A stretch of 32,561 nucleotides of DNA from Gammaproteobacteria bacterium (GCA_041605275.1 JBFIYQ010000001.1:1-32561); one strand, 5' to 3'; counted from the first letter of the stretch, positions 4,575-30,638 are shown. Program-made: numbers and translations. The notes: generated by a model from the sequence alone, not told the origin.

Positions 4575-4811
4575 TAACCGTATCCTCGGGCATTCGTGGC
4601 GTTGCCACCGGACGACGTGACAACAATCATTGCGCGCATTCTCGGGCCTTGAGGGCCGCGTCTCTGCCGACCGGACCGTCAGGTGTAAGATATTGAAATT
4701 ACGCGCAAATTCGTGCGGTTCGATTTTGCTTCAAGGCGTTCGGAAATTCCGTAACGAGACCTTGAGGACCCCTAGAAAGTTATAGCCAATAATAGTTCGC
4801 ACGTCTGCATT

Positions 4812-14938: not shown

Positions 14939-16609
14939 TCAGGAAAGCATGGGCAGGTCCAGTCCCTGATCCCTGGCGCAGTCGATCGCCTCCTCGTATC
15001 CCGCGTCGGCGTGTCGCATGACGCCGCTCGCCGGGTCGTTGGTGAGCACCCGGGCGATTCGTCTGGCGGCGGCATCGCTGCCGTCGCAGACCACCACCAT
15101 TCCGGAATGCTGGGAAAACCCCATGCCGACGCCGCCGCCGTGGTGGATGCTGACCCAGGTCGCGCCGCTGGCGGTGTTGAGCAGCGCGTTGAGCAACGGC
15201 CAGTCGGAAACCGCATCGGAACCGTCGCGCATGCCTTCCGTCTCCCGGTTGGGACTGGCGACGGAGCCGGAGTCCAGGTGATCGCGCCCGATGACCACCG
15301 GCGCCTTGAGCTCTCCCCTGGCCACCATCTCGTTGAAGGCGAGACCGAGCCGCGCCCGCGCGCCTAAACCCACCCAACAGATACGCGCCGGAAGACCCTG
15401 GAAGTGGATCCGCTCGCGGGCCATGTCGAGCCAGTTGTGCAGGTGGGCGTCGTCAGGGATCAGCTGCTTCACCTTCTCGTCGGTGCGGTAGATGTCTTCC
15501 CTCTCTCCGGACAGCGCGGCCCAGCGAAACGGGCCGACGCCGCGGCAGAACAGCGGGCGAATGTAGGCCGGCACGAAACCCGGGAAGCCAAACGCGTTGT
15601 CGACGCCTTCCTCCGAGGCCATCTGGCGGATGTTATTGCCGTAATCCACGGTGGGAATTCCAGACGCGTGGAAATCCAGCATGGCGCGAACCTGCACCGC
15701 CATGGACGCCTTGGCGGCGGCCACCACCGCCTTGGGGTCCTTGGCCCGCATGTCGACCGCCCGCTCCAGGGTCCAGCCGGCCGGGAGGTAGCCGTTCAGC
15801 GGGTCATGGGCGCTGGTCTGGTCGGTGACCAGGTCAGGACGCGCGCCCCGTTTGACCAGCTCCGGAAAAACCTCCGCCGCGTTGCCCAGCAGGCCCACCG
15901 AGACCGCCGCGCCGTCGCTGCGCGCGCGCTCGATTCGACTCAGCGCCTGGTCGAGATCGGTGGCCATCTCGTCCAGATAGCCGGTCTCGAGCCGTTTCTG
16001 AATACGCTCCGGGTCGCACTCCACCGCCAGCATGGACGCCCCGGCCATGGTGGCCGCCAGGGGCTGGGCGCCGCCCATACCGCCCAAACCCGCCGTCAGG
16101 ATCCAGCGGCCGCGGAGATCGCCGCCGTAGTGGGTTCGGGCGGCGGAAACGAAGGTTTCGTAAGTGCCCTGGACGATGCCCTGGCTGCCGATATAAATCC
16201 ACGAGCCGGCGGTCATCTGCCCGTACATCATCAGGCCCTTACGGTCGAGCTCGTTGAAGTGGTCCCAGTCCGCCCAGCGCGGCACTAGATTGGAGTTGGC
16301 GATAAGCACCCGCGGCGCGTCGGGGTGGGTCTGGAACACGCCGACCGGCTTTCCGGACTGCACCAGCAGGGTCTGATCGGCCTCCAGGCGGGTGAGACAT
16401 TCGACGATGGCGTCAAAGCAGGGCCAGTCCCGGGCCGCGCGCCCGATACCGCCGTAGACCACCAGCTCGCTCGGCTTCTCGGCCACCTCCGGATCCAGGT
16501 TGTTCATGAGCATGCGCAGCGGCGCCTCCGTGAGCCAGCTCTTGGCCGTCAGGGCGGCTCCGCGGGGGGCGCGGACGACCCGGTTTGAGATACGGTTGGC
16601 GAGGGTCAT
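14939..16609 (-). CDS. hutU: Urocanate hydratase
   Basis: 556 aa from ATG 16609 ([17 protein letters not shown]...[24 protein letters not shown]...). Full-length urocanase pattern including [10 protein letters not shown]. The ORF track extends 71 codons further upstream, which is unlikely to be real. Confidence 0.95.
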
Positions 16610-16687: not shown

Positions 16688-17503
16688 ATGGAGACCTTCG
16701 AGCTTACTCCTGGCAGCACCCCGCTCCTGATCAGCACGCCCCACAACGGCACGGTGATTCCGGAGTCCATCGCCCGGCGCATGACCGAGCACGCGCGAAC
16801 CGTTCCCGATACCGACTGGCACATGGATCGGTTATACGACTTCGCCGCGCGGCTTGGCGCCGGGGTGCTCAATCCGCGCTACTCGCGCTACGTGGTCGAT
16901 CTCAACAGGCCGCCGGACAACAAGCCGCTGTATCCGGGCGCCAGCAACACCGAGCTTTGTCCCCTCACCTGCTTTGACGAGGCTCCCGTCTACATTGCGG
17001 GAGAAGCGCCGGACAAGCTGGAGGTGAAGGACCGCGTGGAGCGCTTCTGGCGGCCGTATCATCGCCAGCTCAAAGACGAGCTCGATCGACTGAAGCGGAC
17101 CCATGGGGTTGCCGTGCTGTTCGAAGCCCACAGCATTCGCTCGGAGGTGCCGCGTTTCTTCCACGGCCACCTGCCGGACTTCAACCTCGGCACCGCTGAC
17201 GGCTCGAGCTGCGACGCCCACCTTCAAAATCTATTGCGCGGAGTATTGCAGTCCGCCAAGGGCTACACCTTTGTCGTCAACGGACGGTTCAAGGGCGGCT
17301 ACAACACACGGAACTACGGCTCGCCCCAAAGCGGTATTCACGCGGTGCAGCTGGAGCAGGCGCAACGCACCTACATGGACGAAAGCTATCCCTTTGCCTA
17401 CGACGAAACCCGGGCGAAACGGGTCAAGCCCTATCTGGTTCAGATTCTGGAAACCGTGCTTGCGTGGACCGCTGAATGCAGCCTGGCGAGAACGCCGGGT
17501 TAG
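16688..17503 (+). CDS. hutG: N-formylglutamate amidohydrolase (deformylase)
   Basis: 271 aa. [65 protein letters not shown] and HAVQLE are collinear with Pseudomonas-type HutG. Confidence 0.9.
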
Positions 17504-18771
17504 GTATTCTTTTCTGCCGCTTCGCCGCCGCGTACCACAAGATGGCAGGGATTGAAGCCGATACGGTAGGCGAGCTCCGCCGGGTGATCCACGTCCCATA
17601 GAACGAAGTCGGCGCGCTTACCGCTTTCCAATGTGCCCACGGTCGAGGCCATCCCCAGCGCCCGGGCCGCATTGCGCGTCACGCCCGCCAGCGCCTCTTC
17701 CGGCGTCATTCGAAACAGCGTGCAGGCCATATTGAGCATCAACAGCAGCGAGCAGACCGGGGCACTCCCCGGATTGTTGTCGCTGGCGACGGCCATGGGC
17801 ACGCCGTAGCGACGGAACAGATCCACCGGAGGGATCCGGGTTTCGCGCAGGAAGTAAAAAGCGCCCGGCAGCAGCACTGCAGCGGTGCCGTGTTTCCCCA
17901 TGGCGGCGACGGCATCCTCGGAAACATACTCCAGGTGGTCGGCGGAAAGCGCACCGTAGCGGGCCGCCAGCTGGGCGCCGCCTGAATCCGAAAGCTGCTC
18001 CGCGTGAAGCTTGATCGGCAGATTCAAGCCGCGGGCGGCCTGAAAAATCCGCTCGGTCTGTGCCGGGCTGAAGCCGATGCGCTCGCAGAACGCGTCCACG
18101 GCGTCGACCAGATTGGCCTCGGCCGCCGCCGGCATGACTTCCGCGCAGACGAAATCGATGTACTCGTCGGCGCGACCCTCATACTCCGGCGGAAGCGCGT
18201 GAGCGCCGAGAAATGTCGTGACCACGGTCACCGGCTCAATCTCACCCAGGCGTCTGGCCGTGCGCAGCATGCGAAGCTCGGTGTCCCGATCCAGGCCGTA
18301 GCCGGACTTGATCTCCACCGTGGTCACGCCTTCGCGCATCAGCGCATCGAGCCGCCGGCGCGCCGATTCCACCAGCTCTGACTCATCCGCGGCGCGCGTT
18401 GCCCTGACCGTGGAGAGAATCCCTCCGCCCCGCCTGGCGATTGCCTCGTAGCTTGCACCCTTAAGGCGCATTTCGAACTCCCGCGCCCGGTCGCCGGCGT
18501 GCACCAGATGGGTATGACAGTCGATGAGGCCCGGCGTGATCCAGCGCCCGCCGGCGGAGCGCACCCGATGATCGGCGGGCGCGTCCGCGGGAAGGGCGCT
18601 GCGCGCGCCGATCCAGGCAATGCGACCCGAGCGCACCGCCAGGGCTCCGTCCTCGATGGCGCCGTAGGCCGCTTCATCGCTTTCGCGCATGGTCGCAAGG
18701 CGCGCGTCAATCCAGAGCTGGTCCCAACGGTCGGGAGAATCGGCGGCGATTTGAGATGTCTGCTCGGGCAT
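17500..18771 (-). CDS. hutI: Imidazolonepropionase
   Basis: 423 aa amidohydrolase. [10 protein letters not shown] metal-binding motif, [22 protein letters not shown]. Confidence 0.95.
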
Positions 18772-18860: not shown

Positions 18861-20255
18861 ATGCCAGACCCGATTCAGCTTCTCGCCCCGCTGGCGCTGC
18901 TTCCCCACGGCTGGGAAGAAAACGTGCGCATCGAAGTCGACGCGGAAGGCGTTATCTTAAGCGCCGATGCGGCCAACGGAAGCGTGGCGTCAGACGTGCA
19001 GAGGCTCGACGGGCCGGTGATCCCCGGCATGGCCAACCTCCACTCCCACGCGTTTCAACGGGCGATGGCGGGGCTGACCGAACGCCGAAACAGCAACGGG
19101 GACAGCTTCTGGACCTGGCGCGAGACCATGTACCGCTTTGTTTCCCTGCTGGACCCGGATCAAATGGAAGCCATTGCCGCGCAGCTTTATGTGGAAATGC
19201 TGGAGGCGGGCTACACCGGTGTCGCCGAATTTCATTACCTGCACCACGACAAGAACGGCCGACCCTATGCCGATCTCGCTGAAACCTCACAGCGCATTGT
19301 CGCGGCGTCCCAACGGGCGGGCATCCGGCTGACCCTGCTGCCGGTGCTGTACGCTCAGGCGGGCTTCGGGAGACAACCCCTTTCGCCACAGCAGAAGCGA
19401 TTTGGAAACAGCGCCGAACAGTTCAATCGTCTGACGGAGCAGCTGAACCGCGCGTACCGTCGGGACCCCGCCGTTCGCTTGGGAATAGCGCTTCACTCCC
19501 TGCGCGCGGTGGATATGGATGACCTGCGCCGGGCGGTAGACCATCTGAGCGCGTTGGACGATCTCGCACCCATTCACCTGCACGTCGCCGAGCAGACCCG
19601 CGAGGTGGAGGAGTGTGTTGCCTTTTCCGGGCGCCGGCCGGTGCAGTGGTTGTACGACAACATTGACGTCGACCGGCGCTGGTGCCTGGTGCACGCGACC
19701 CATGTGGACGACGGCGAGATCGACGCCGTGGTCGCCAGCGGCGCGGTGGTGGGGCTATGCCCAACCACGGAGGCCAATCTCGGAGACGGTCTGTTTCCAG
19801 CCGCGGAGTTCGTCGAGCGCGGCGGCCGATTCGGCATCGGCTCCGACAGCCACGTCTCGGTCTGTCCGATGGAGGAGCTCCGGCTGCTGGAATACGGTCA
19901 GCGTCTCATATTGCACCGCCGGGCGGTGCTGGCATCCGGGCGGGAGCCTTCGACCGGACGGTCTCTTTACAAGATGGCGGCCGACGCCGGCGCCCAGGCG
20001 CTCGGCTTGGTCTCCGGCGAAATCAAACCGGGCGCCTGCGCGGACCTCGTGGTTTTGGACTCCGACAGCCCCGGCCTATACGCTCGCCGCGGTGACGCGA
20101 TTCTGGATGCCGCCGTGTTTGCCGGCAGCCGACGCTTCGTCGATTCGGTATGGGTCGGCGGCCGAGAGGTCGTCTCCGAAGGTCGACACCCGATGCGGGC
20201 GCAGGTCTTCGAGCGCTATAAATCCGCCCTGGACGCGCTGGAGCGTGTCCTTTAG
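18861..20255 (+). CDS. hutF: Formimidoylglutamate deiminase
   Basis: 464 aa amidohydrolase with PGMANLHSHAFQRAMAG, HLHVAEQ, VHATH, GSDS. Together with hutG this indicates the five-step hut route. Confidence 0.9.
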   Translation: MPDPIQLLAPLALLPHGWEENVRIEVDAEGVILSADAANGSVASDVQRLDGPVIPGMANLHSHAFQRAMAGLTERRNSNGDSFWTWRETMYRFVSLLDPDQMEAIAAQLYVEMLEAGYTGVAEFHYLHHDKNGRPYADLAETSQRIVAASQRAGIRLTLLPVLYAQAGFGRQPLSPQQKRFGNSAEQFNRLTEQLNRAYRRDPAVRLGIALHSLRAVDMDDLRRAVDHLSALDDLAPIHLHVAEQTREVEECVAFSGRRPVQWLYDNIDVDRRWCLVHATHVDDGEIDAVVASGAVVGLCPTTEANLGDGLFPAAEFVERGGRFGIGSDSHVSVCPMEELRLLEYGQRLILHRRAVLASGREPSTGRSLYKMAADAGAQALGLVSGEIKPGACADLVVLDSDSPGLYARRGDAILDAAVFAGSRRFVDSVWVGGREVVSEGRHPMRAQVFERYKSALDALERVL

Positions 20256-20272: not shown

Positions 20273-21025
20273 CTGGAAAGCAAAAAGGTCATCATCATCA
20301 CCGGCGCCAGCCGGGGCATCGGCGCCGCCACCGCCCGCCTTGCCGCCGAGCGAGGCTACTCGGTGTGCGTCAACTACCGGCAAAGCACGGAGGCGGCCGA
20401 CCGTCTGGTGGCGGAGATCGCCGCGGCCGGCGGTGAAGCGGTGGCGGTTGTCGCCGACACCAGCGTCGAGAGGGACGTCCTGCGGCTGTTCAAGACCGTG
20501 GATCAAAGCCTGGGGCCGGTTTCGGCGCTGGTGAACAACGCCGGAATATTGAAACAGCAGATGCGCGTGGCGGAGATGAGCGCAGAGCGCATCAGCGAGG
20601 TAATGGCGGTCAACGTCACCGGCTGCTTTCTCTGCGCCCGCGAAGCGGTCAAGAGGATGTCCACGTCTAGCGGCGGTAAAGGCGGCGCAATCGTCAACGT
20701 CTCCTCGGGCGCTTCCCGGCTCGGCGCTCCCGGCGAGTACGTCGACTACGCCGCCTCCAAGGGCGCGCTGGACACGTTGACCATCGGTCTGGCCAAGGAG
20801 GTGGCCGAGGAAGGCATTCGCGTCAATGCCGTGCGCCCCGGCTTCATCTACACAGATATTCACGCAAGCGGAGGCGAGCCGCAGCGGGTCGATCGGGTGA
20901 AGTCCCTGGTACCGATGAAACGCGGCGGTCAACCGGAGGAAGTCGCCCGTGCCATAATGTGGCTTTTGTCCGACGAGGCCTCGTACACCACCGGGGCCTT
21001 CATCGACATCACCGGCGGAAAATAA
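20273..21025 (+). CDS. Short-chain dehydrogenase/reductase (classical SDR)
   Basis: KKVIIITGASRGIGAATA (TGxxxGxG), NNAG, and catalytic S...YxxxK (YAASKGAL). The frame opens at 20222 and has no ATG, GTG or TTG before the Rossmann motif. Start assigned to CTG 20273, 7 nt after AAAGAGGA. The ORF track starts only at internal GTG 20363. Confidence 0.75.
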   Translation: MESKKVIIITGASRGIGAATARLAAERGYSVCVNYRQSTEAADRLVAEIAAAGGEAVAVVADTSVERDVLRLFKTVDQSLGPVSALVNNAGILKQQMRVAEMSAERISEVMAVNVTGCFLCAREAVKRMSTSSGGKGGAIVNVSSGASRLGAPGEYVDYAASKGALDTLTIGLAKEVAEEGIRVNAVRPGFIYTDIHASGGEPQRVDRVKSLVPMKRGGQPEEVARAIMWLLSDEASYTTGAFIDITGGK

Positions 21026-21026
21026 A

Positions 21027-21821
21027 ATGACCATCGATCGATCTACGCTCAACAGCTTGAGCGCGGCGCTTGTTGATATCGCCGAACGCGCGGGCAGAGA
21101 AATTCTTACCGTGTACGGGGCCGGATTCGACGTCCGCACCAAGCGCGACGCGACCCCGGTCACCGAAGCCGATGAGCGATCCGAGCAGCTGATTCTCGAG
21201 GCGCTGGCCGACGTCGCGCCCGAGATCCCCGTAATCGCGGAAGAGAGCGTGGCCGAGGGCCGCGTGCCGGAGATCAAAGGCTCTTCCTTTTTTCTCGTCG
21301 ATCCCTTAGACGGCACCAAGGAGTTCGTGAGCCGCAACGGCGAGTTCACCGTCAACATCGCGCTTATTGAAAACGCCGTCCCCCTGATCGGCGCGATCCA
21401 CGTCCCCGTGCTCGAGGAAAGCTACTGGTGCGATGGCGACGGCGCCGCCTGGCGTCGACGCGGCACCGGCGAAGCCGTGCAGATCCGCTGTCGCAAACCG
21501 GACAACGGGCTGGTGGTGGTGGCGAGCCGCTCGCACCGGGACGCGAAGACCGACGCGTTTCTGGAAAAGTTCAAAGTCAAAGAGCAGATCTCGGCCGGTT
21601 CATCGATCAAATTCTGCCGCGTCGCCGAGGGCGCCGCCGATCTCTATCCCCGGCTCGGCCGCACCATGGAGTGGGACGTTGCTGCCGGCCACGCCATTGT
21701 CAACGCCGCCGGAGGAAGCGTCACCACCGTGGACAACGAGCCATTTACCTACGGCAAGCCGGACTTCGCCAATCCGTTTTTCGTTGTCCGTGGTCTGCCT
21801 CCCGATTCTTCTGACGACTGA
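21027..21821 (+). CDS. cysQ: 3'(2'),5'-bisphosphate nucleotidase (inositol monophosphatase family)
   Basis: 264 aa. EESV...FFLVDPLDGTKEF metal motif and EWDVAAGHAIV (WDxAAG). Starts 1 nt after the SDR stop. Confidence 0.8.
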   Translation: MTIDRSTLNSLSAALVDIAERAGREILTVYGAGFDVRTKRDATPVTEADERSEQLILEALADVAPEIPVIAEESVAEGRVPEIKGSSFFLVDPLDGTKEFVSRNGEFTVNIALIENAVPLIGAIHVPVLEESYWCDGDGAAWRRRGTGEAVQIRCRKPDNGLVVVASRSHRDAKTDAFLEKFKVKEQISAGSSIKFCRVAEGAADLYPRLGRTMEWDVAAGHAIVNAAGGSVTTVDNEPFTYGKPDFANPFFVVRGLPPDSSDD

Positions 21822-21830
21822 CGTTCCGGG

Positions 21831-21847
21831 TGAAGCGTTCCGCTTCA
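21831..21847 (+). terminator. Hairpin after the cysQ stop
   Basis: TGAAGCG-ttc-CGCTTCA, 10 nt after the TGA at 21819-21821. No U-tract. Confidence 0.3.
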
Positions 21848-22009
21848 ACAATGACGAAGCGCGCTGGCGCGAACCTTGTAGAGCGCCCATTTACAATTGA
21901 CACATTCTGAACCACCCGATCACGGGAATCGTCCGCAAGCGGTGTCCCGCAGCGGGCTTTGTTCAATCTCGCTAAATGGATCACTAATCATCGATGCAAG
22001 GAGCTAGCC

Positions 22010-23011
22010 ATGTCCGCATCGCTACCCGATAAAATGACCGTCATCGAGATTCCGGAGCCCGGCGGCCCGGAAGCACTGAAACCGGCCAGACGCGCGCTGC
22101 CTTCACCCGGTGAGGGTGAAGTGCTGGTCAAGGTGACCGCCGCCGGGGTCAACCGCCCCGACGTGATGCAGCGTAAAGGCATGTACCCGCCGCCCCCCGG
22201 CGCCCCGGATACGCCCGGGCTGGAGATCGCCGGCAAGGTGGTGGCGGTGGGTGAAGGCGTGTCCTCACCCGCGGCCGGCGAGCAGGTGTGCGCGCTGGTC
22301 GCCGGCGGCGGCTACGCCGAGTTTTGTCTGGCATCGGCGCCACTCTGTCTGCCTTGGCCCGAAGGCATGACGGCGGTCGAGGCCGCCGCTTTGCCGGAGA
22401 CCTTCTTCACCGTGTGGACCAACGTGTTTGATCGCGGCCGACTCAAAAGCGGTGAGAGATTTCTGGTTCACGGCGGCACCAGCGGCATCGGCACTACGGC
22501 AATTCAGCTGGCTAAGGCGTTCGGCGCCACCGTTTACGCCACCGCCGGCACGGCGGAAAAATGCGAGGCCTGCCTCAAGCTCGGTGCGGATGCGGCAATT
22601 AATTATCGAGAGGAAGACTTCGTCGAGCGCATCGACTCGCTGACCGATGGCAAGGGCGTGGACCTGATTCTAGATATGGTCGCCGGAGACTACCTGCCGC
22701 GAAATCTCAAATGCCTCGCGGTGGAGGGACGTCTGGTCCAGATCGCGCTGCAGAAGGGACCCAAGGTGGAGATGAACCTGCTTCCGATTATGCTCAAGCG
22801 TCTTACCGTTACCGGATCGACGCTCCGCCCGAGAAGCGTCGCGCAAAAGGCGGAAATCGCGGCGTCGCTAAAAGATAAAGTCTGGCCGCTGCTCGAGCAG
22901 GGCAAGGTGAAGCCGGTAATCCACGCCACCTTTCCGCTGGAGAAGGCGGCGGAAGCCCATGCGCTGATGGAGAGCAGCAGGCACATCGGCAAAATTCTTC
23001 TCACCAACTGA
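22010..23011 (+). CDS. NAD(P)H:quinone oxidoreductase (zeta-crystallin/PIG3-type MDR)
   Basis: 333 aa from ATG 22010 (AAGGAG upstream). EVLVKVTAAGVNRPDVMQRKGMYPPPPG and nucleotide site VHGGTSGIGTTAIQLAK. Confidence 0.85.
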   Translation: MSASLPDKMTVIEIPEPGGPEALKPARRALPSPGEGEVLVKVTAAGVNRPDVMQRKGMYPPPPGAPDTPGLEIAGKVVAVGEGVSSPAAGEQVCALVAGGGYAEFCLASAPLCLPWPEGMTAVEAAALPETFFTVWTNVFDRGRLKSGERFLVHGGTSGIGTTAIQLAKAFGATVYATAGTAEKCEACLKLGADAAINYREEDFVERIDSLTDGKGVDLILDMVAGDYLPRNLKCLAVEGRLVQIALQKGPKVEMNLLPIMLKRLTVTGSTLRPRSVAQKAEIAASLKDKVWPLLEQGKVKPVIHATFPLEKAAEAHALMESSRHIGKILLTN

Positions 23012-23018
23012 CGATTCG

Positions 23019-23564
23019 ATGAACGACGCGAGTGAGACCAGTTCGACTCTGGCCGACGGTGGCACACCGCTCTCCCCCGCCGAGTTTCTCGCCAGGCTCG
23101 AATCGCTGGGTATTGCCCATACAACCTTCGATCACGAGTCGGTGTTCACGGTGGAAGAATCCAAACGTTTGCGCGGCGATATGGACGGGGCCCACGTGAA
23201 GAACCTGTTTCTGCGCAACAAGAAAGGCGCGATGTGGCTGGTCACCTGTCTCGAAGACCGCCGGGTTGATCTCAAATGGCTGGCGGAATCCCTGGGCGCA
23301 GGACGTTTCTCGTTTGCCAGTCCCGATCGCTTGATGAAATACCTGGGCGTCGTTCCCGGAGCGGTGACGACATTTGCCGCCATAAATGACACCACGGGAT
23401 CCGTTCGGGTCGCGTTGGACCGCGCACTGCTCGAGGCGTCGCGAATCAACCTGCATCCGCTCACCAACGCCATGACCACGACCATTGATTCGGCCGACCT
23501 GCTGCGCTTTCTCGAAGCTGTCGGACATCCCCCGACGCTTATCGGGTTCGAGGACCGTCAATGA
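23019..23564 (+). CDS. YbaK/ProX-type aminoacyl-tRNA deacylase domain protein
   Basis: 181 aa. HVKNLFLRNKKGAMWLVTCLEDRRVDLKWLAE...GVVPGAVTTFAAIND matches the prolyl-tRNA-synthetase-associated editing domain pattern. Confidence 0.75.
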   Translation: MNDASETSSTLADGGTPLSPAEFLARLESLGIAHTTFDHESVFTVEESKRLRGDMDGAHVKNLFLRNKKGAMWLVTCLEDRRVDLKWLAESLGAGRFSFASPDRLMKYLGVVPGAVTTFAAINDTTGSVRVALDRALLEASRINLHPLTNAMTTTIDSADLLRFLEAVGHPPTLIGFEDRQ

Positions 23565-23570: not shown

Positions 23571-25124
23571 TCAGCGCAAACCGTCGATAAAGGGATCGAT
23601 CCGGTTTACAAACTCAACCGCGCCGGAGATGTCCCGGGCCATCTCCCGATCCTGTTCCCATACATCAATTCCTTCCCGCACCGCGGCATGCAGAGCTTCC
23701 AGAGAGGGGCTTGTGCGCATGGGTCGAAGTAGATCGATGCCCTGGGCGGCGCACAGCAGCTCGATGGCGAAAATCGTCGTGGTATTGGAAATGATCGCGC
23801 CTAGTTTAAGCGCGGCGCCCATGCCCATGGACACGTGGTCTTCCTTGTCCGCCGAGGTGGGAATCGAATCCACCGACGCAGGATGCGCCAGCCCCTTACT
23901 CTCGCTGGCGAGCGCAGCGGCGGTGACCTGGGCAATCATGAATCCCGAATTCAGTCCCGCGTCTTTAACCAGAAACGGCGGCAGTCCCGAGAACGCGGTA
24001 TTGGTCAGCTTTTCGATGCGTCGCTCGCTGATGGTTCCGAGCTCCGCCACCGCCATGCCCAGCATGTCGGCGGCGATGGCCACGGGCTGACCGTGAAAAT
24101 TTCCGCCGGAGATGATCGCGCCGTCCTCCGGAAAGATGAGCGGATTGTCGGTGACGGCATTCATCTCGATAGCGAGCTTGCTCTCCACGTCGGACAGCAC
24201 GTCCCGCGCCGCGCCGTGCACCTGCGGCGCGCAGCGAAGGCTGTAGGGATCCTGAACGCGCACGTCTCCGAAGCGATGGGATTCGCGTATCTCGGAGCCT
24301 CTCAGCAGCGTAAACAGGTTGTGGGCGCTGGCCTGTTGACCCGGATAGGGCCTCAGCGCGTGGAGACGGGGGTCGAATGCGGCATCCGTTCCGCGCAGGG
24401 CGTCCACCGAAAGGGCGGCCACAAGATCGGCGGCGCGCACCAGCCTTCGAACCGCAATCACCGCGTTGGCGAGCAGCGCGGTCATCGCCTGGGTGCCGTT
24501 GATCAGCGCCAGCCCCTCCTTGGGCTCGAGCGCGAAAGGCTTAAGGTCCGCGCGGGCAAGACCCTCGGCGGCCGGGAGCAGCGCTCCTTCCACATGAACC
24601 TTGCCCTTGCCCAGAAGCGGCAGGGCGAGATGGGCCAGCGGCGCGAGATCGCCGCTTGCGCCTACCGATCCGCGGCTTGGCACCAGCGGCAAGATGTTTT
24701 CGTTCAGCAGCGTAAGCAACGCATCGATGATTTCCGCGCGCACCCCCGAGTGGCCCCGCGCCAGCGTGTTTGCGCGCAACAGCAGCATGCCGCGCACCGT
24801 CGCTTCGTCCAGGGGCTCGCCCACGCCAGCACAGTGACTCAGGATGAGACGTTCCTGGAGCACCGCCAGCTTGTCCGCCGCAATGCGCACCTTGGCCAGA
24901 TCGCCGAAACCGGTATTGACCCCGTAAACCGCCTGTTCTTTTTTAAGCGTATCGAGGACGGTCCGGCGCGCGGCCTCGACCCGTTTCCGGGCCGAGTCAT
25001 CCAGCGCACAGCGGGAGCGGCCGAACACGGCCGCGCGGTAGCGATCCAGGTCGAGGCTCTTGCCATCAACAACCAGCAAGGAGATTTCCCCTGTTTTTGT
25101 CAGGCGGTTATTTGTAGTCGGCAC
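23571..25124 (-). CDS. hutH: Histidine ammonia-lyase
   Basis: 517 aa. MIO-forming Ala-Ser-Gly in SRGSVGASGDLAPLAHL, plus YGVNTGFG, NGTQAM, QDPYSLRC. GTG start at 25124 with no obvious Shine-Dalgarno. Confidence 0.95.
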   Translation of the reverse strand: MPTTNNRLTKTGEISLLVVDGKSLDLDRYRAAVFGRSRCALDDSARKRVEAARRTVLDTLKKEQAVYGVNTGFGDLAKVRIAADKLAVLQERLILSHCAGVGEPLDEATVRGMLLLRANTLARGHSGVRAEIIDALLTLLNENILPLVPSRGSVGASGDLAPLAHLALPLLGKGKVHVEGALLPAAEGLARADLKPFALEPKEGLALINGTQAMTALLANAVIAVRRLVRAADLVAALSVDALRGTDAAFDPRLHALRPYPGQQASAHNLFTLLRGSEIRESHRFGDVRVQDPYSLRCAPQVHGAARDVLSDVESKLAIEMNAVTDNPLIFPEDGAIISGGNFHGQPVAIAADMLGMAVAELGTISERRIEKLTNTAFSGLPPFLVKDAGLNSGFMIAQVTAAALASESKGLAHPASVDSIPTSADKEDHVSMGMGAALKLGAIISNTTTIFAIELLCAAQGIDLLRPMRTSPSLEALHAAVREGIDVWEQDREMARDISGAVEFVNRIDPFIDGLR

Positions 25125-25170
25125 TCCGCACAGCGCGCCGGCGTCAGCGGGCGCAACTCCCCGGCGCTCC

Positions 25171-25356
25171 TCATCCCGTGAGGGCGGTTACAAAGCATTG
25201 AGCAAGCGGAATGTAGTCGGAATTGGGAAGCGAGAAGAATCGAAGAAACTCGGGTGTCGAAATCAACCCGGCAAGAAAACTTTCCAGGAGCGACTGACTC
25301 ACCGGGTGCAATCGCAGCGGAAACTCGCAAACAGTCATCGCAACGTCAGGGGGCAT
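25171..25356 (-). CDS. Candidate 61-aa small ORF between mttB-like and hutH
   Basis: The ATG is preceded by AGGAGGA (25368-25362) with a 5-nt spacer, the strongest Shine-Dalgarno in the window. Third-position G+C is about 58 percent by my count, apparently below neighbouring genes. No recognisable family. Confidence 0.25.
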   Translation of the reverse strand: MPPDVAMTVCEFPLRLHPVSQSLLESFLAGLISTPEFLRFFSLPNSDYIPLAQCFVTALTG

Positions 25357-25436
25357 ACGGGTCCTCCTGTTCGATTCGCCTTTCCCGCGACAGGGAACAG
25401 CGTCAACCTGAAGCCTAGCGACAATGTGGCGCTATT

Positions 25437-26978
25437 TCAAAGCAATTCATCGCTCCGTCGTTGGATGAACTCCTCCAGTTCTCCCCGCCTCGACGATTCC
25501 AGCGCGGGCTCCTGGTATCCCTCCAGCATGGCCTCGCATTGAGTTCTCGCCCGCGCCAGCGCGTCGTGGGCCCCTTCCGACTGCCACTTCTCGAAAGACT
25601 GCCTGATCCCGATACGCGGGCTGAAGAATGCCGCCTTGTAGTGCTCCAGAGTGTGGTCTGCATCCAGGAACATTCCGCCCGGGCCCACATGGTGAATGGT
25701 CTCTAACGCCAGCGAGTCGTCGGAGACGTCGATCCCTTTCACCAGGCTGCGCACCATGGCGATTTGGTCCAGATCCAGCATCAGCTGCTCGTAGCTCATG
25801 GTGAGATAAGACTCGAGGATCCCGGCGCCGTGCATCAGATAGTTGACCCCGCAAAGCACTGAAGTGAGCAGCGTGAACATTCGTTCGTAATTGCTCTGCG
25901 GGTCGGGAACGGGGGAATCCGTCAGCGCGCCGCCACCGCGACAGGGCAGATTGTATCTTCGCGCAAGTTGTGCGCAGGCGGCGATGCAGATAGCGGATTC
26001 GGGACTGCCGATTGCGGGCGCGCCGGTGCGCATATCCAGATTACTCGACGCCGTGCCGTAGAGCACAGGAACCCCAGGTTTGACCAGCTGGGTCAGCACG
26101 ATGCCGGCGAGCACCTCGGCGTTCTGCAGCGCCAGCGCGCCGGCAAGAGTGGTGGGACCTGAAACGCCGGCCATGACGAAGGGACTGATGAGATTGACCT
26201 GACCGTGGCGCGCGAATGCCAACAGACTCTCCACCATGGCGGTGTCGTAAACCAGCGGGCTGTTCACGTTCACGCTGCAGTGCGCAACCGGACCTTTACG
26301 CAGCTCGTTTTCGCCGCCGAAAACGATGGCGAGCATCCGAAGCGCGTCCATGGACTCTTCCCTTCCGTTGACGAAACCGGACTGCACCGGCTTGTCGGCG
26401 AGCGTGAGTATGGCGCGCCAGCAATGCAGGTGGCGTGTTTTTACCGGCACGTCCTGGGCTTCCACCGGCTTGCGGCCGACCACGTGTATTTCGGGGGAGA
26501 GGCAGCAAATGCGGGTTATTCGCTCGACGTCCTCAAGGGTGCCGGCACGCCGCGTGCCCTGAAGATCGCGCACGAAGGGCGGCCCGCCTCCGGGCATCAC
26601 CGCGCAATAATCGCCCCCGATGGTAACGCTGTTCCGCGGCGATCTTGCCCTCAAGGTATACGCCGCCGGCGCGCTGCTCAGCGCGTGCAGCACCAGATCT
26701 TCCTCGATGAAAACCCGGTCGCCCTCGATACGTGCGCCGGCCTGGCGGAAAATCCCTATGGCTTCTTCGCTGTGGAATTCGACCCCGGTGCGTTTGAGTA
26801 TCTGCAGAGAGGCTTCGTGAATACGCTCGATCTTGTCGGCGTCCAACAGGTCGAGCTTTCTGATTGAAACGGTGATAGGAACGGAGCGCGAGGCATCCTC
26901 CAAATCTTCACGCTCGCGCTGCATGCGCTCCCTGCGGCCGCCCCGCCGCTGTCGCACCGATTTCTTGCGCGTGGGCAT
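25437..26978 (-). CDS. MttB-superfamily (trimethylamine/quaternary-amine) methyltransferase, non-pyrrolysine type
   Basis: 513 aa from ATG 26978 (MPTRKKSVRQRRGGRRER..., an Arg-rich N-terminus common in this family). IERIHEASLQILKRTGVEF and the following blocks fit the MttB TIM-barrel family. No in-frame TAG. The ORF-track extension to 27197 would overlap the upstream gene. Confidence 0.85.
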   Translation of the reverse strand: MPTRKKSVRQRRGGRRERMQREREDLEDASRSVPITVSIRKLDLLDADKIERIHEASLQILKRTGVEFHSEEAIGIFRQAGARIEGDRVFIEEDLVLHALSSAPAAYTLRARSPRNSVTIGGDYCAVMPGGGPPFVRDLQGTRRAGTLEDVERITRICCLSPEIHVVGRKPVEAQDVPVKTRHLHCWRAILTLADKPVQSGFVNGREESMDALRMLAIVFGGENELRKGPVAHCSVNVNSPLVYDTAMVESLLAFARHGQVNLISPFVMAGVSGPTTLAGALALQNAEVLAGIVLTQLVKPGVPVLYGTASSNLDMRTGAPAIGSPESAICIAACAQLARRYNLPCRGGGALTDSPVPDPQSNYERMFTLLTSVLCGVNYLMHGAGILESYLTMSYEQLMLDLDQIAMVRSLVKGIDVSDDSLALETIHHVGPGGMFLDADHTLEHYKAAFFSPRIGIRQSFEKWQSEGAHDALARARTQCEAMLEGYQEPALESSRRGELEEFIQRRSDELL

Positions 26979-27004
26979 ACTTCGCCGCCGATCGGAGCCG
27001 GGCG

Positions 27005-28021
27005 TCACATGTCTTTCGGATCGCGGTAGTAGATCAGCGGCGTTCCCACGCCTCTTTCCCTGGCTTTTTCGTAAGCGAGGTGGCCGATCATGATATCGCT
27101 CACGGCAAAACCCTTGTGCCAGAATATGATTCGCTCGCTCTCCGATTCTCGGCCCGGCTTGATCCCGGCGACAACCTCGCCGATTTCTCCGTAGCAATGC
27201 TCGTCACCGAGCTCGCCCGCCTGAATCAACCCGGCAAACTGACCGTATCGCGACTGCTTGCACTGGTTCCAATCGTCAACGATAAACTTATCCACGGAGA
27301 ACGGCAGCGTTCGCTCCACCGAGAGCACGGCACCGTAAGGTTGAAGCAGCGCGCCGGGCTTGACCAGCGCATCCGGCACCAGAACCTCGTGTTCGATCAG
27401 CCTCGATGCGTCAATGATGATATCCGCGTCGCGGACCGTCTCTGCGGCATTATCTTTGACCACTATGCTCTTGTTCAGTCGCTTCGACATCTCGTCGGCA
27501 AAGCGCTCACGGGACACGGGCCGCCTGCTGGTGACTCGAATCTCCTCGAAGTCGAACAGCCGGTCCAGCATCGCCACGTTGTACCACGATGTGCCGCGGG
27601 CGCCGATGTGGCCCAGCACTCGGGGCTTTTCGCAGGCCAGATACTTGGCTCCCACCGCGGTCACCGCCCCGGTGCGCATCCAGGTGGTGGAAGTAGCATT
27701 GATGATTGCGTAGGGGGCCCCGGTTTCCGGCCTGAACAGCGTCAGGGTAGCGAACTCCGAGGGCATGTCGTGCTGGTAGTTTTTTTGAAAGTCGCCGATG
27801 ACCTTGACTCCGCAGGAACTCACTGGCTCCACATAGCCTTTGAGAATATTAAAAAGCTTCTCCGGATAAGCCAGCGGCAGGTGATCCTTGGATGGCATGA
27901 TGACCTTCTTCTCCCCGTGCGCTTTGAGGCCAAGCTCGATCGCGTCCATGATTTCGTCGAGGCTCAAGTCGAGGGAGTCGATGTCTTCTTTGGATAGAAA
28001 CAGCACTTCGACGCTCGGCAT
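27005..28021 (-). CDS. Ornithine cyclodeaminase/mu-crystallin family NAD-dependent enzyme
   Basis: 338 aa. TWMRTGAVTAVGAKYLA (family RTaA motif) and Rossmann site VLGHIGARGTS. AGGGGG lies 4 nt before the ATG. Confidence 0.85.
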   Translation of the reverse strand: MPSVEVLFLSKEDIDSLDLSLDEIMDAIELGLKAHGEKKVIMPSKDHLPLAYPEKLFNILKGYVEPVSSCGVKVIGDFQKNYQHDMPSEFATLTLFRPETGAPYAIINATSTTWMRTGAVTAVGAKYLACEKPRVLGHIGARGTSWYNVAMLDRLFDFEEIRVTSRRPVSRERFADEMSKRLNKSIVVKDNAAETVRDADIIIDASRLIEHEVLVPDALVKPGALLQPYGAVLSVERTLPFSVDKFIVDDWNQCKQSRYGQFAGLIQAGELGDEHCYGEIGEVVAGIKPGRESESERIIFWHKGFAVSDIMIGHLAYEKARERGVGTPLIYYRDPKDM

Positions 28022-28235
28022 GACGCCCCCTTTTTGTTATTACGCGACGCCCGGGTCGCGACTGCGGCTGAAGTCGGCGGGAATATAAGGTCCAGCTCAG
28101 ACTACGGCAGTGTACCGCGGGTGCGAGCGGCGGGACAAAGCAAGAGGCACGGAGGCGGCTATCGACCCGCGGCGGAAGTCACGGGTGCTGCGGGACTTCG
28201 GACCCGGGTCATCGACCGGGACCATCCTCGCCGGA

Positions 28236-30638
28236 TCAGGCGGCGCGCGCCGAGAAATCGACTTTGCCCAGATCGTCCAGCAGCCGCGGTCGCCCGATTC
28301 CATAACCCTGGGCGTAGTCGACTCCGATTTTTCGCAGCACCTTGAGAATCTCCTGGTCCTCGACAAACTCGGCGATGGTTTTCTTGCCCATGACCTGGCC
28401 GATCTCGTTGATAGACTGAACCATGGCGCGGTTGATCGGATCCTTAGCGATGTCGCGAATGAACACGCCGTCGATCTTGAGGAAGTCCACCGGAAGCGTT
28501 TTCAGATAAGCGTAGGACGACATACCGCTGCCGAAGTCGTCCAGGGCAAACAAGCAGCCGAGGGAGCGCAGCGCCTCGAAGAATCTGACCGCATCGGAAA
28601 GATTGGCGATGGCGGCCGTTTCCGTTATCTCGAAGCAGATTTTTTTCGGCGGTATGTCGCCCCGTTTGAACAACGAGGTCACGTAATCCAGAAGCTCCTC
28701 GTTGATAAGAGACTGTCCGGATACGTTAATGGAACAGAAGTTCAATGAGTCCAGCTTGTGGGGGTGCCGCTTGAACCAGTCGAAGGCGGTGCCGATCACC
28801 CATTTGTCGATGCGGCTAGCCATGTCGTAGCGCTCGGCCGCGCTCAGGAACGCGCCCGGCGGGTGGAAGGTTTCCGGATCGTCCTCGTTGATGATTCGAA
28901 GCAGCAGCTCTCCGTGGTGACTTCCGTTCTTGATGTTCCCGGAGATAGGCGTGATGGGCTGAAAGGCAAGCCGCATGCTGCCGTGCTCCAGCGCGTTATT
29001 AATGCGGGCGACCCACTGCATCTCCCCCTGCATTCGCGCCACTTCCAGATCCCCGGGCTCGCACACGTGGATCCGATTTCGACCGTGGTCCTTGGCGGCA
29101 TAGCATCCGGAATCGGCAAGCCGGAGCAAATCCGTCACCGTCTCCTCGCCCGAGGAAATGGGCACCAGACCAATACTGGCGCCGATGCTGAAGGTCTTAT
29201 CCTCCCAGCTGAAACGGAAGGTGCGAATGGCATCCAGCACGGCGTCCGCGATTTTGCGCGCCTCGTCCCCGGGACAGCGCTCTATGAGGATACCGAATTC
29301 GTCACCGCCGAGTCTGGCGATGGTATCGGACCGCCGCACCCTCGTCTTCAGGATGCCGCCCAGCTGTTTCAGCAGCGCGTCTCCGGCCACATGGCCACAG
29401 CTGTCGTTGATGATCTTGAACTGGTCCAGATCCAGGTAGCACAACGCATGCTCGCATTGTTCCTCGGCGGAAGCGCGGATGGCGGCCTCCACTCGCCGCT
29501 CGAACTCGCGCCGGTTGACCAGCCCCGTGAGCGCGTCGTGGCTGGCCTGGTAGCTCAGTCGTTCGGACATCGCGTGGGATTCCGTGACGTCCTGAATTTG
29601 GGAGATGGTATGAATGGGCGAATCGCCGCTGTCGCGCACCACCGATACGCTGAGCAGTCCCCAGATGGTTCTGCCGTCCTTGTGGCGAAAGCGCTTCTCC
29701 AGCTGGTAGTGATCCATTTCGCCGCTGATCATGGACCGATACTTCTCCACGCTAACGTCGACGTCGTCAGGGTGGGTGATCTCCATAAACAATCGGCCGT
29801 TCAGCTCCCCGGGCCCGTAGCCCAGCATGGCCTCGAAAGTCCGGTTGAGCTCGAAGAATCGTCCGTCCTTGTCCAGAAGAGCCATGGCGATGGGAGCGTC
29901 GTCAAACGCGCTCCTGAACCGCGCCTCGCTTTTCCTCAGCGCGGCCTCGATGTCCAGGCGTTCCTGAATTTCTTCTTCCAGCTGCAGGTTCGTGATTTCG
30001 GTCTGCTCCTTGGCGCGGGATACGCGTTTGACCAGATCGGATTTTTCGAATCCGAGCTTCAGCGCCCGCACGGTGCTGCTTTGAAAATGCACCGCGAGGC
30101 CGGTCATGACCACGGCGTATACCAGCGCCAGCATGGCCATGAAAAAGTAGACATCGTTGCCGCTTGCGAGGAGCCACAGGGTCATGGGCGTGGTCGTGGT
30201 GAGCATGAAGGCGAGGAACGCCGATAAGAGCGGCGCCAGCAGCGGAATGGCGGCGAGAGTGATGCCGCCCAGGGCAAAGCAGATGAGCAGCAAATACTCC
30301 GAAGACACCTGGGGCGCGAATAGAAGTGCGGCGAGACCCCAGACGCAACCCATGATCATGGAGCCGATGATGGTGGCGTAACGCCAGATCTCGTGTCGGC
30401 GTTCCCGCTTCGGTTGGCGATAGTAGGCCACGGCCAAGATCGTGCGCACCAGACTGGCGAGCAACAGCGCCAGAAGCCATGCCACCAGGGAAGCCGGGGT
30501 CACCACGTCGGAAAGCGCGAAGGCAAGAACGGCGCCAACGCCGAGGTTGCCCAGAATGGCAAACTTGCCCTGGTCGTATAGATATCGAACCCTGTTTCGC
30601 CCGACGTAGCTGTTCCGCTGCTGGTCTCTGTCGACCAC
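28236..30638 (-). CDS. Membrane sensor PAS-GGDEF-EAL protein (c-di-GMP cyclase/phosphodiesterase)
   Basis: About 7 TM helices, then a PAS domain (FRSAFDDAPIAMALLDKDG...). GGDEF domain (RLGGDEFGILI) with I-site RRSD. EAL domain with ELLLR, EITE, DDFGSGMSS, KIDG, EFVE and QGY all present. GTG 30638 has no Shine-Dalgarno. The frame is open to CTG 30713, which follows GGAGG by 5 nt. Confidence 0.9.
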   Translation of the reverse strand: MVDRDQQRNSYVGRNRVRYLYDQGKFAILGNLGVGAVLAFALSDVVTPASLVAWLLALLLASLVRTILAVAYYRQPKRERRHEIWRYATIIGSMIMGCVWGLAALLFAPQVSSEYLLLICFALGGITLAAIPLLAPLLSAFLAFMLTTTTPMTLWLLASGNDVYFFMAMLALVYAVVMTGLAVHFQSSTVRALKLGFEKSDLVKRVSRAKEQTEITNLQLEEEIQERLDIEAALRKSEARFRSAFDDAPIAMALLDKDGRFFELNRTFEAMLGYGPGELNGRLFMEITHPDDVDVSVEKYRSMISGEMDHYQLEKRFRHKDGRTIWGLLSVSVVRDSGDSPIHTISQIQDVTESHAMSERLSYQASHDALTGLVNRREFERRVEAAIRASAEEQCEHALCYLDLDQFKIINDSCGHVAGDALLKQLGGILKTRVRRSDTIARLGGDEFGILIERCPGDEARKIADAVLDAIRTFRFSWEDKTFSIGASIGLVPISSGEETVTDLLRLADSGCYAAKDHGRNRIHVCEPGDLEVARMQGEMQWVARINNALEHGSMRLAFQPITPISGNIKNGSHHGELLLRIINEDDPETFHPPGAFLSAAERYDMASRIDKWVIGTAFDWFKRHPHKLDSLNFCSINVSGQSLINEELLDYVTSLFKRGDIPPKKICFEITETAAIANLSDAVRFFEALRSLGCLFALDDFGSGMSSYAYLKTLPVDFLKIDGVFIRDIAKDPINRAMVQSINEIGQVMGKKTIAEFVEDQEILKVLRKIGVDYAQGYGIGRPRLLDDLGKVDFSARAA

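Follow-up and report, generated by a model that had tools for sequence, protein, structure and literature searches.

Non-pyrrolysine proteins of the MttB methyltransferase superfamily abound in the bacteria of soils, sediments, sponges and the ocean, and about six of their substrate specificities are, to our knowledge, known, almost all from anaerobes. What such an enzyme may do elsewhere is the question raised by a 32,561-nucleotide stretch of DNA from a gammaproteobacterium (GCA_041605275.1 JBFIYQ010000001.1:1-32561; hereafter the window, meaning the whole stretch), in which an MttB-family gene lies head-to-tail between a gene of the ornithine cyclodeaminase (OCD)/mu-crystallin superfamily and, beyond a 61-residue open reading frame (ORF; orf61), hutH, the gene for histidine ammonia-lyase (HAL). 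An initial annotation of this DNA had placed the four genes on the minus strand and proposed that they include an uncharacterised module converting an N-methylated compound into a substrate of the histidine utilisation (Hut) pathway. The four genes, their coordinates and their strand are borne out by ORF reading and profile searches (Table 1), and the OCD–MttB pair is a genuine, conserved two-gene module found far beyond the lineage of the window. The reading preferred here, to which we give a probability of roughly 0.45, is that the pair degrades a bulky acidic betaine, MttB acting before the OCD-family enzyme, and feeds HutH in this clade, with histidine betaine (hercynine) and N-methylhistidines as the lead candidates.

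Conservation of the OCD–MttB pair

The distribution of the pair was followed by a scan with an OCD alignment, one genome per species, which yielded 80 loci, all from metagenome-assembled genomes (MAGs); L numbers designate these and the other loci compared. Genes in high-GC loci were called with a self-trained codon-position model, with approximate start codons. Close relatives of the window organism (gammaproteobacterial MAGs whose MttB is 72–84% identical) share the whole moaA-to-hutG region, a synteny that says nothing on function. Outside the window clade, seven MttB orthologues (56–67% identity) are found in Acidiferrobacterales, in Anaerolineae-type contigs and in unassigned contigs, within otherwise unrelated neighbourhoods, and the OCD gene (338 aa) stands directly upstream of the MttB gene in six of them and three genes away in the seventh. 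The pair of L097, for instance, is flanked by rpsP–rimM on one side and by dprA–topA on the other, whereas in L013, L014 and L096 the stop and start codons of the two frames overlap or nearly touch. Given that the pairing holds in all seven of these unrelated contexts, with overlapping or near-touching frames, a specific functional coupling of the two genes is indicated, and the suggestion of an uncharacterised module stands.

The OCD protein, 68–92% identical across Gammaproteobacteria, Arenicellales, one alphaproteobacterium, several Chloroflexota families and Rokubacteria/Methylomirabilota, has an MttB of the GRHY pocket type described below within three genes in 14 of the 80 loci, which belong to Gamma- and Alphaproteobacteria and several Chloroflexota families. 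The dependence is thus one-sided: GRHY MttB is always accompanied by the OCD gene in the loci examined, whereas the OCD gene often occurs without MttB. The simplest reading of this asymmetry is that the OCD enzyme would follow MttB in the pathway and use a metabolite that has other sources as well. Searches of the accessible literature found no paper naming both ‘trimethylamine methyltransferase’ and ‘ornithine cyclodeaminase’ and no description of the OCD–MttB pair; the novelty of the system lies in an MttB-superfamily enzyme whose pocket signature is new and whose obligatory partner, an OCD-family protein, had not been recorded before.

Several neighbours of the pair recur. A protein of the M24/creatinase-N type is encoded beside it in L010 (2367-3587), L025 (7716-8969), L039 and L098 (315-1538); its best NCBIfam match is the dimethylsulfoniopropionate lyase DddP, at 370 bits against a cut-off of 600, and it could be a lyase or hydrolase of betaine-like zwitterions. 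Two Chloroflexia loci (L031 and L037, 2800-16400) hold five MttB paralogues, 25–32% identical to the window protein, around the OCD gene, together with genes for an Asp/Glu-racemase-like protein, an ATP-grasp-like protein and a pyridoxal-phosphate enzyme of Cys/Met metabolism. The OCD loci of Arenicellales (about 35 among L042–L093, for example L063 2782-11440) share a block that begins with XdhC-like genes, a MobA-like gene and a fatty-acid hydroxylase gene and continues with a class-III aminotransferase gene on the opposite strand, the OCD gene, an RNase T-like exonuclease gene and the genes for the large and small subunits of AcnX, with neither MttB nor hutH. The OCD gene of Rokubacteria/Methylomirabilota (L060–L091, for example L078 3446-9008) comes straight after a stationary-phase-type cluster of merR, surE, pcm, acylphosphatase, nlpD and sigma-factor (rpoS-like) genes.

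These contexts bear on the view that the pair has no pathway link to hutH, MttB being a glycine-betaine-like paralogue and the OCD protein a general amino-acid dehydrogenase or imine reductase of the alanine-dehydrogenase kind that would recycle pyruvate or ammonia, with the gene order that of nitrogen metabolism at large. The place of the rokubacterial OCD gene behind surE–pcm–nlpD–sigma is housekeeping-like, that of Arenicellales is divergent from a class-III, pyruvate-type aminotransferase gene, sarcosine oxidase genes occur near the pair in L011 and L028, and within the window the pair is without compositional anomaly, all of which would suit such a role, but the pairing of the two genes in seven of seven unrelated contexts, often frame to frame, would not be expected from it. 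As the residues of both proteins also speak against this view (below), we hold it to be unlikely.

The substrate pocket of MttB

The family assignments made in the initial annotation are confirmed by profile searches. The MttB protein matches PF06253 (MTTB) with 561 bits, its residues 11–511 covering positions 1–498 of the 500 in the profile (an alternative start at 26924 would give 495 aa), and the OCD protein matches PF02423 with 163 bits. The MttB frame is uninterrupted and contains no TAG, as expected for the non-pyrrolysine type, and the protein scores 382 bits against the pyrrolysine-type model TIGR02369, under the cut-off of 525. The best match in the PDB is Desulfitobacterium hafniense MtgB (405 bits, 41% identity), and the comparison of sequences covered this protein, taken from the PDB alignment, and a paralogue of Sinorhizobium medicae.

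In MtgB, Y97 and F356 form the cation–π cage around the substrate, while R312 and H348 bind its carboxylate (PMC13080624). Replacement of Y97 by Ala raises the Km from 0.88 to 320 mM, several hundred-fold, whereas F356Y is tolerated, and R312 is kept in all MttB-family members that use acidic quaternary amines (PMC13080624). The window protein does not carry the full MtgB motif: the four positions read G/R/H/Y instead of Y/R/H/F, with Gly for Y97, Tyr for F356, and R312 and H348 retained. This GRHY signature is found in 16 of 17 OCD-linked MttB orthologues across phyla, the exception being L013 (Gln for His), and Gly occupies the Tyr97 position in every member of the OCD-linked subfamily, whereas MttB paralogues within the same loci read ARHG, SRHG, SFHG and others. 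Since the signature is common to the OCD-linked orthologues and differs from both MtgB and the local paralogues, GRHY MttB is, by its pocket residues, a distinct specificity class. The window protein is thus no canonical MtgB. Going by the MtgB mutagenesis data, the change of Tyr97 to Gly would cripple the binding of glycine betaine, which counts against a glycine-betaine-like paralogue without a link to hutH. GRHY MttB probably still binds a carboxylate-bearing onium compound, in a pocket roomier than that of MtgB.

An enlarged pocket might also admit a cation methylated on a ring nitrogen, be it an N-methylimidazolium compound (for example 1- or 3-methylhistidine, which anserine or balenine could provide) or a pyridinium betaine like homarine, with histidine freed directly for HutH and the OCD enzyme engaged in a side reaction. 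The leaving group would then presumably be a neutral heteroaromatic, and the neighbourhoods of sister lineages, with their M24 peptidase-like genes and ABC transporters of the Dpp/Opp type (SBP_bac_5), fit the methylhistidines suggested in the initial annotation. However, no characterised MttB member uses ring-N-methylated cations (PMC13080624), the obligatory OCD partner would be left unexplained, and the pair is without hutH in most lineages, so that this substrate class appears highly unlikely.

The OCD-family protein

Among the NCBIfam equivalog models, all of which score far below their cut-offs, the best for the OCD protein is that of archaeal alanine dehydrogenase (ala_DH_arch, TIGR02371; 178 bits, cut-off 409); the OCD models give 28–66 bits (cut-offs 337–350) and the curated models of Δ1-pyrroline-2-carboxylate (Pyr2C) reductase 38–92 bits (cut-offs 266–400). 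The closest solved structures are the Pyr2C reductase of Thermococcus litoralis (6t3e, TlLhpI) and the alanine dehydrogenase (AlaDH) of Archaeoglobus fulgidus (AfAlaDH), at about 133 bits. When the TlLhpI residues discussed in PMC4141209 are placed on the structure-match alignment, the catalytic tetrad proves to be kept, with K45, K73, R116 and D309 at the positions of R39, K67, R110 and D303 of TlLhpI. The Asp that marks NAD specificity (Asp159) is replaced by S165-R166-R167, which suggests a preference for NADP(H). E56, D228 and K232 (Pseudomonas putida numbering), proposed as needed for cyclodeamination (PMC4141209), correspond to N58, V232 and E236. Across 82 orthologues, K45, N58, K73, W114, R116, S165, R167, D309 and most of the other catalytic and pocket residues checked are invariant, while V232, E236 and R166 vary.

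True ornithine cyclodeaminase is excluded by the residues N58/V232/E236 and by the low scores of the OCD models. An alanine dehydrogenase of the archaeal type, whose model gives the best NCBIfam match and lends some colour to a general role in nitrogen metabolism, agrees neither with the score (178 against 409 bits) nor with the residues, the NAD-specific Asp being replaced at S165 and the pocket Arg (Arg52) at N58. The activities described for TlLhpI, the nearest relative to have been characterised, are those of Pyr2C reductase, alanine dehydrogenase and N-methyl-L-alanine dehydrogenase (PMC4141209); L-arginine dehydrogenase and the opine (tauropine) dehydrogenases are further members of the superfamily (PMC4113996, PMC4141209). 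The most likely identity of the OCD protein is that of an NADP(H)-linked enzyme, either an imine reductase or an N-alkyl/amino-acid dehydrogenase, acting on the C–N bond beside a carboxylate.

Pyr2C reductase activity is compatible with the sequence, in view of 6t3e as the closest structure and of the NADP-type signature. It would suit a pathway of the proline-betaine type, in which MttB demethylates stachydrine, hydroxyproline betaine or homostachydrine and the OCD enzyme, as a reductase of the cyclic ketimine Pyr2C, finishes L-proline, the position of hutH then reflecting inherited order or a loose co-regulation of amino-acid catabolism. The OCD superfamily has given rise to Pyr2C reductases on several occasions, and NADPH was the cofactor in the assays of these enzymes (PMC4113996), which fits the signature found here. 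The neighbours of the pair in Chloroflexota also point this way, as they include genes of the mandelate racemase/muconate-lactonizing enzyme (MR/MLE) branch of the enolase superfamily (the family of proline-betaine racemase), DAO flavoenzyme genes and M24 peptidase-like genes, and so does an analogous cluster on pSymA of S. medicae (L110 4142-17437), probably a proline-betaine-type cluster using MttB in an aerobe, although its MttB paralogue (38% identity) has the pocket ARHG rather than GRHY. In Arenicellales the OCD gene adjoins AcnX genes, and AcnX type I makes Pyr2C (PMC5144071), but the AcnX of Arenicellales is not this characterised dehydratase but the form with two subunits, for which a function in bacteria is unproven, and the argument is weakened accordingly. 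The product of MttB would be N-methylproline and not an imine, so that a further oxidase would be needed; none is constantly present, and the strict dependence of GRHY MttB on the OCD gene is left unexplained. Nor would such a pathway account for the association of OCD homologues with HAL genes in six cultured genomes, described below. We consider it the main alternative, though clearly less likely than the reading preferred here.

The S. medicae cluster further encodes an 807-aa FAD oxidoreductase, a GlxA regulator, M24 and isochorismatase-family proteins, a betaine ABC transporter, an MR/MLE protein and an Ldh-family reductase.

Association with histidine catabolism

Adjacency to hutH, which the initial annotation treated as a feature of the pair, is found in 10 of the 80 OCD loci, all in one gammaproteobacterial clade. 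It follows the OCD gene rather than MttB: L021 reads OCD–orf61–hutH and has no MttB orthologue, OCD and hutH are likewise without an orthologous MttB between them in L033, L034, L049, L050, L051, L057 and L082, and outside the clade the pair stands by itself. Within that clade, OCD–hutH adjacency persists across sub-clades with differing flanks, one locus (L025) has the rearranged layout hutH< >OCD-MttB <hutU, and MttB paralogues of a second type, like Dpp-type ABC transporters, turn up repeatedly near hutH, all of which argues against pure accident. In two of the latter loci, L099 and L100, the order is MttB, a 203-aa frame, orf66 and hutH, without an OCD gene. Neither a hutC gene nor an excess of HutC boxes was seen in the window, a provisional box consensus, TTGTATATACAA, giving one match with up to three mismatches, below chance expectation, in what is a weak test.

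The strongest sign that more than accident is involved comes from cultured bacteria outside the Gammaproteobacteria, where OCD homologues (45–49% identity) were inspected on replicons of six organisms: Polaromonas JS666, Burkholderia PAMC 26561, Paracoccus saliphilus, Rhizobium sp. NXC14, Rhizobium leguminosarum and Sinorhizobium sp. B11. All six adjoin a HAL-family gene and/or hutC or hut genes, and they have in common with the window protein the hallmark motifs FN[IV]L[KR]GY, GH[IV]G[AT]RGTS, RV[TH]SRRP, VDDW[NG]QC and FWH[KR]G. The Ala-Ser-Gly triad is missing from the HAL paralogues of Polaromonas, both Rhizobium strains, Sinorhizobium and a further MAG cluster (L094), all five being intact, whereas the Burkholderia copy carries a frameshift and the hutH of Paracoccus is canonical. 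HAL homologues that lack the triad, and with it the methylidene-imidazolone (MIO) group, were recently identified as trimethylammonia-lyases of histidine betaine or ergothioneine (bioRxiv 10.1101/2025.08.13.670108). Judged by these lyases and by the HAL and hut neighbours, the OCD subfamily is associated, in three classes of Proteobacteria, with the breakdown of histidine and histidine betaine, and the cluster of OCD-like, MIO-less HAL and PhnD-like genes looks like a utilisation locus for histidine betaine or ergothioneine. In the literature on ergothioneine and hercynine, judged by titles and abstracts, no paper describing an OCD-containing cluster of this kind was found.

Transport and regulatory genes accompany these clusters. 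A cytoplasmic PhnD/SsuA-like protein is encoded in at least five of the six, the gene table of R. leguminosarum having a gap there; the annotations of Rhizobium sp. NXC14 and of L094 include a betaine-type binding protein, ABC transporter genes of unspecified type occur in R. leguminosarum and Sinorhizobium sp. B11, hutC is present in both Rhizobium clusters, and Sinorhizobium has two luciferase-like monooxygenase (LLM) flavin oxidoreductases. A PhnD-like protein (PF12974) of 266–280 aa, without a signal peptide, is also encoded immediately upstream of the OCD gene in sister gammaproteobacterial lineages (L021 7161-7961, L049, L057, L082 and L008) and near it in Chloroflexota (L023 and L035); the gene is missing from the window and from its closest relatives L001–L007, and the more distant L008 keeps it upstream.

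A proposed route and what weighs against it

Each chemical step of the scheme that follows is proposed from gene pairing, residue patterns and neighbourhood statistics, which are themselves observations. MttB would bind a carboxylate-bearing quaternary amine bulkier than glycine betaine and move one of its N-methyl groups to the Co(I) of a corrinoid protein. Both this protein and its methyl-tetrahydrofolate (THF) transferase would be shared components with genes at other loci, on the model of MtgBCD in aerobic Ruegeria. The OCD enzyme may then act on the demethylated N-alkyl amino acid, in an NADP(H)-linked reaction at the Cα–N bond, either by oxidative release of the alkylamine, which would leave a 2-oxo or imino acid, or by a hydride-borrowing exchange, which would give the plain L-amino acid. 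A candidate substrate in this clade is an N-α-methylated histidine such as hercynine, whose skeleton could enter the series HutH, HutU, HutI, HutF and HutG. A histidine-type substrate takes the lead here because the module lies directly upstream of hutH and because OCD homologues occur in clusters for histidine and histidine betaine; histidine betaine is in this sense a plausible substrate. The histidine link is nevertheless the weakest step and, taken alone, is judged less likely than not.

The conversion of an N-methyl compound into a hut substrate, as first suggested, gains from the recurrence of the OCD–histidine (or histidine-betaine) link in cultured Alpha- and Betaproteobacteria. The direct passage from hercynine to HutH is chemically incomplete as drawn, since one demethylation by MttB gives dimethylhistidine, which is not a HutH substrate. 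A remedy would be that the OCD enzyme removes the remaining dimethylamino group by NADP-linked hydride borrowing, with histidine or an oxo acid passing to Hut. This would amount to a cobalamin-dependent, oxygen-independent route for hercynine or other N-α-trimethyl amino acids in aerobic or microaerobic bacteria and, if true, to a demethylating counterpart of the MIO-less lyase route that releases no trimethylamine; in this specific form the proposal is unlikely.

Several further observations weigh against a feed of HutH by the pair. We know of no citable precedent in the OCD superfamily for the oxidation of a tertiary N,N-dimethyl amino acid. Every hutH-adjacent OCD orthologue falls into a single gammaproteobacterial clade of a neighbour-joining OCD tree, so that inheritance alone could explain the adjacency, and outside that clade the OCD–MttB pair is without hut genes nearby. 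Most of the OCD loci, about 35 in Arenicellales and about 14 in Rokubacteria/Methylomirabilota, have neither MttB nor hutH nearby and yet keep the main residues invariant, which would suit a common metabolite better than a histidine-specific one. W114, a probable pocket residue, is Asp, Glu or Asn in the alpha- and betaproteobacterial homologues, which may therefore not share the substrate, and a promoter-like block just after MttB (Table 1) means that hutH may be transcribed on its own. The explanation of hutH adjacency as mere clade synteny is itself softened by the OCD homologues beside HAL or hut genes in the six cultured genomes.

Corrinoid partner and cobalamin

Among the ORFs of the 32.5-kb window there is no corrinoid protein, no methylcorrinoid:THF methyltransferase and no RamA, as had been noted at the outset, but an ‘orphan’ MttB is no anomaly. 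The MtgB homologues of the aerobe Ruegeria pomeroyi rely on MtgC, a core cobalamin-binding protein, and on MtgD, a methyl-THF transferase that acts in both directions; the two also serve methionine synthesis, their genes lie at other loci, and a genome may carry up to seven PF06253 genes (PMC12478193). With such remote, shared partners, an ‘orphan’ MttB is to be expected in aerobes. The cobS and cobT genes of the window, about 21 kb from the MttB gene, indicate that the organism makes cobalamin, and it is likely an aerobic cobalamin producer. Elsewhere, a cobalamin salvage cluster abuts MttB in L011, and a gene for DUF1638, which has been linked to corrinoid reactivation (PMC12478193), lies near the pair in L013.

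Gene layout and signals in the window

The product of hutH scores 688 bits against TIGR01225 (cut-off 539) and keeps Ala-Ser-Gly at residues 156–158, in agreement with its description as a true, MIO-type ammonia-lyase. The most probable start codon is the conserved TTG at 25079, as in all relatives, given their 502-aa calls and the fact that the GTG extension is out of frame in the relative L001. The gaps of 26, 80 and 46 nt given initially are arithmetically right for the starts then assumed; with the TTG start the last becomes about 91 nt.

The candidate 61-aa ORF proves to be a real gene: it is equipped with a ribosome-binding site (AGGAGG), its substitutions against relatives are concentrated at the third codon position (2/2/24 and 19/10/39 at positions 1/2/3, for example), and it belongs to a widespread family with at least 120 homologous protein clusters (48–95% identity, 61–67 aa, motif FSLPNSDYI); a Pfam search of the protein gave no match. 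Copies 55–95% identical occur in L001–L009 and L021, and the gene lies upstream of hutH in L021 (9138-9320) and in L099 and L100 (L100 5001-5201), where GRHY MttB is absent. The family, which has a further member at L101 5001-5201, is often found directly upstream of hutH, and in one lineage an SprA-related gene is the neighbour instead. A role as a hutH-specific leader peptide is no general rule, as a homologue (57% identity) beside an SprA-related gene has no hutH nearby.

In the spacer between MttB and orf61, which is otherwise not conserved (window, L001, L005, L008 and L021), one conserved block overlaps the MttB stop codon and runs on beyond it; it is retained in relatives at 72–84% protein identity and in part in L021, which has no MttB. 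Although below the threshold of the promoter pattern scan, the block is a candidate for a weak sigma-70-like promoter, or an operator, of orf61–hutH. The region upstream of the OCD gene, which extends to a preceding GGDEF-EAL gene ending at 28236, likely carries the promoter of the co-directional gene string, although the pattern scan called none in it; AAAGGGGG is the ribosome-binding site just 5' of the OCD ATG. An intrinsic-terminator scan found nothing in the OCD–MttB gap or in the MttB–orf61 gap, and one weak terminator-like hairpin (25093-25077) inside the orf61–hutH gap. The initial impression that no convincing terminator separates the genes is upheld, the GC-rich hairpin of the last gap being no more stable than shuffled sequences (z = -1.07) and lacking a T tract. 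An Rfam search of the whole window returned zero matches, and no compositional sign of horizontal transfer was seen, the GC content of the OCD–MttB pair (58–64%) being the same as that of its flanks.

The remaining hut genes stand apart, hutH being separated from hutF, as first described, by four genes for a short-chain dehydrogenase/reductase (SDR), an inositol-monophosphatase (IMPase)-family protein, a quinone oxidoreductase and a YbaK-like protein; hutU scores as a canonical urocanate hydratase (978 bits) and not as a thiourocanate hydratase in NCBIfam. The four genes (20363-23564, plus strand; the quinone oxidoreductase is of the PIG3 type) keep their order in close relatives of the window, and the first three are also kept in distant gammaproteobacterial relatives (HutH 65–71% identical), where the YbaK-like gene is missing. 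The SDR and IMPase genes overlap and may share a transcript with hutF. Elsewhere in the window, an FHA-domain gene adjoins a CHASE2-Ser/Thr protein kinase gene (4215-7400, minus strand), and two more signalling genes, of the GGDEF type, lie at 13788-14930 and 28236-30638.

Table 1. Features of the window and OCD-like clusters in other genomes. Coordinates of the latter refer to the locus named.
Feature	Coordinates	Strand	Size	Basis or remark
OCD/mu-crystallin-superfamily gene	27005-28021	-	338 aa	PF02423
Non-pyrrolysine MttB-superfamily methyltransferase gene	25437-26978	-	513 aa	PF06253
orf61	25171-25356	-	61 aa	AGGAGG ribosome-binding site, conserved in relatives
hutH	23571-25079	-	502 aa	from conserved TTG; longest ORF reaches GTG at 25124
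Candidate promoter-like non-coding block	25412-25440	-		TTGAAA-17 nt-TAGGCT; alignment of relatives
Intergenic region upstream of OCD gene	28022-28235	-	214 nt	sequence reading
hutU	14939-16609	-		above NCBIfam equivalog cut-off
hutG	16688-17503	+		above NCBIfam equivalog cut-off
hutI	17500-18771	-		above NCBIfam equivalog cut-off
hutF	18861-20255	+		above NCBIfam equivalog cut-off
cobS and cobT, aerobic cobaltochelatase subunits	1127-4119	+		Pfam CobS_N/AAA_5 and CobT/CobT_C
OCD-like + HAL cluster, Polaromonas JS666 plasmid	L104 5276-9847			
OCD-like + HAL cluster, Rhizobium sp. NXC14	L106 4539-12023			
OCD-like + HAL cluster, Sinorhizobium sp. B11	L108 1325-10229			
Further OCD-like + HAL cluster	L107			
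Further OCD-like + HAL cluster	L109			
Further OCD-like + HAL cluster, MAG	L094 7064-14860			

Significance

A subfamily defined by a fixed pocket signature and an obligatory, putatively NADP-type OCD partner is a concrete, cloneable two-enzyme system through which a new substrate, and the new reaction that follows on it, could be found. In aerobes, cobalamin-dependent methyl-amine chemistry would then no longer end with glycine betaine. Should histidine betaine prove to be the substrate, a route of hercynine turnover that makes no trimethylamine would be added, and a function would be found for the OCD subfamily in the hut/HAL clusters of rhizobia, Burkholderiales and Paracoccus. If the histidine part fails, the pair would still mark an unknown betaine pathway across at least two phyla.

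Comparison with known systems

The nearest relatives of the window MttB are the MtgB proteins of the glycine betaine systems (D. hafniense MtgB, PDB 2QNE/9YCE, and MtgBCD of Ruegeria pomeroyi), with which it shares the PF06253 TIM-barrel family, the absence of pyrrolysine and the carboxylate-binding Arg and His. The Ruegeria mtgB gene is, moreover, as remote from its corrinoid protein gene as that of the window appears to be. In contrast to MtgB with its cage Tyr97, the GRHY subfamily has Gly, and it is always paired with an OCD-family gene, whereas the described Mtg systems are without such a partner. MtpB, MtcB, MtyB and MthB, which act on the acidic quaternary amines proline betaine, carnitine, gamma-butyrobetaine and phosphocholine, respectively, keep the equivalent of R312, as does the window protein, while their aromatic pair varies with the substrate (PMC13080624); these enzymes come from anaerobes (Eubacterium limosum) and share one core corrinoid protein, MtgC.

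With regard to the OCD protein, the [Arg/Lys]-Lys-Arg-Asp tetrad is shared with TlLhpI and AfAlaDH, from which it differs in having Asn58 at the position of Leu52 in the former and Arg in the latter, and GARGTS as its Rossmann motif. A further possible likeness is to DauA/DauB, an FAD D-amino-acid dehydrogenase coupled to an OCD-family NAD(P)H L-amino-acid dehydrogenase, the latter reducing the imino or oxo acid produced by the DAO-family flavoenzyme. A 446-aa DAO gene recurs beside the OCD gene in Chloroflexota and lies five genes upstream in close relatives of the window, a DauAB-like feature, whereas the window itself, unlike DauA/DauB, contains no DAO gene. The alpha- and betaproteobacterial clusters resemble the window in the HAL or hut neighbour of the OCD gene, and sister gammaproteobacterial lineages also keep the PhnD-like gene beside it. 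Their lyase, however, lacks Ala-Ser-Gly (the hutH of Paracoccus being canonical), as does the histidine-betaine trimethylammonia-lyase Swoo_3913, and they have no MttB, whereas in the window the HutH is a canonical MIO enzyme and MttB is inserted between the two.

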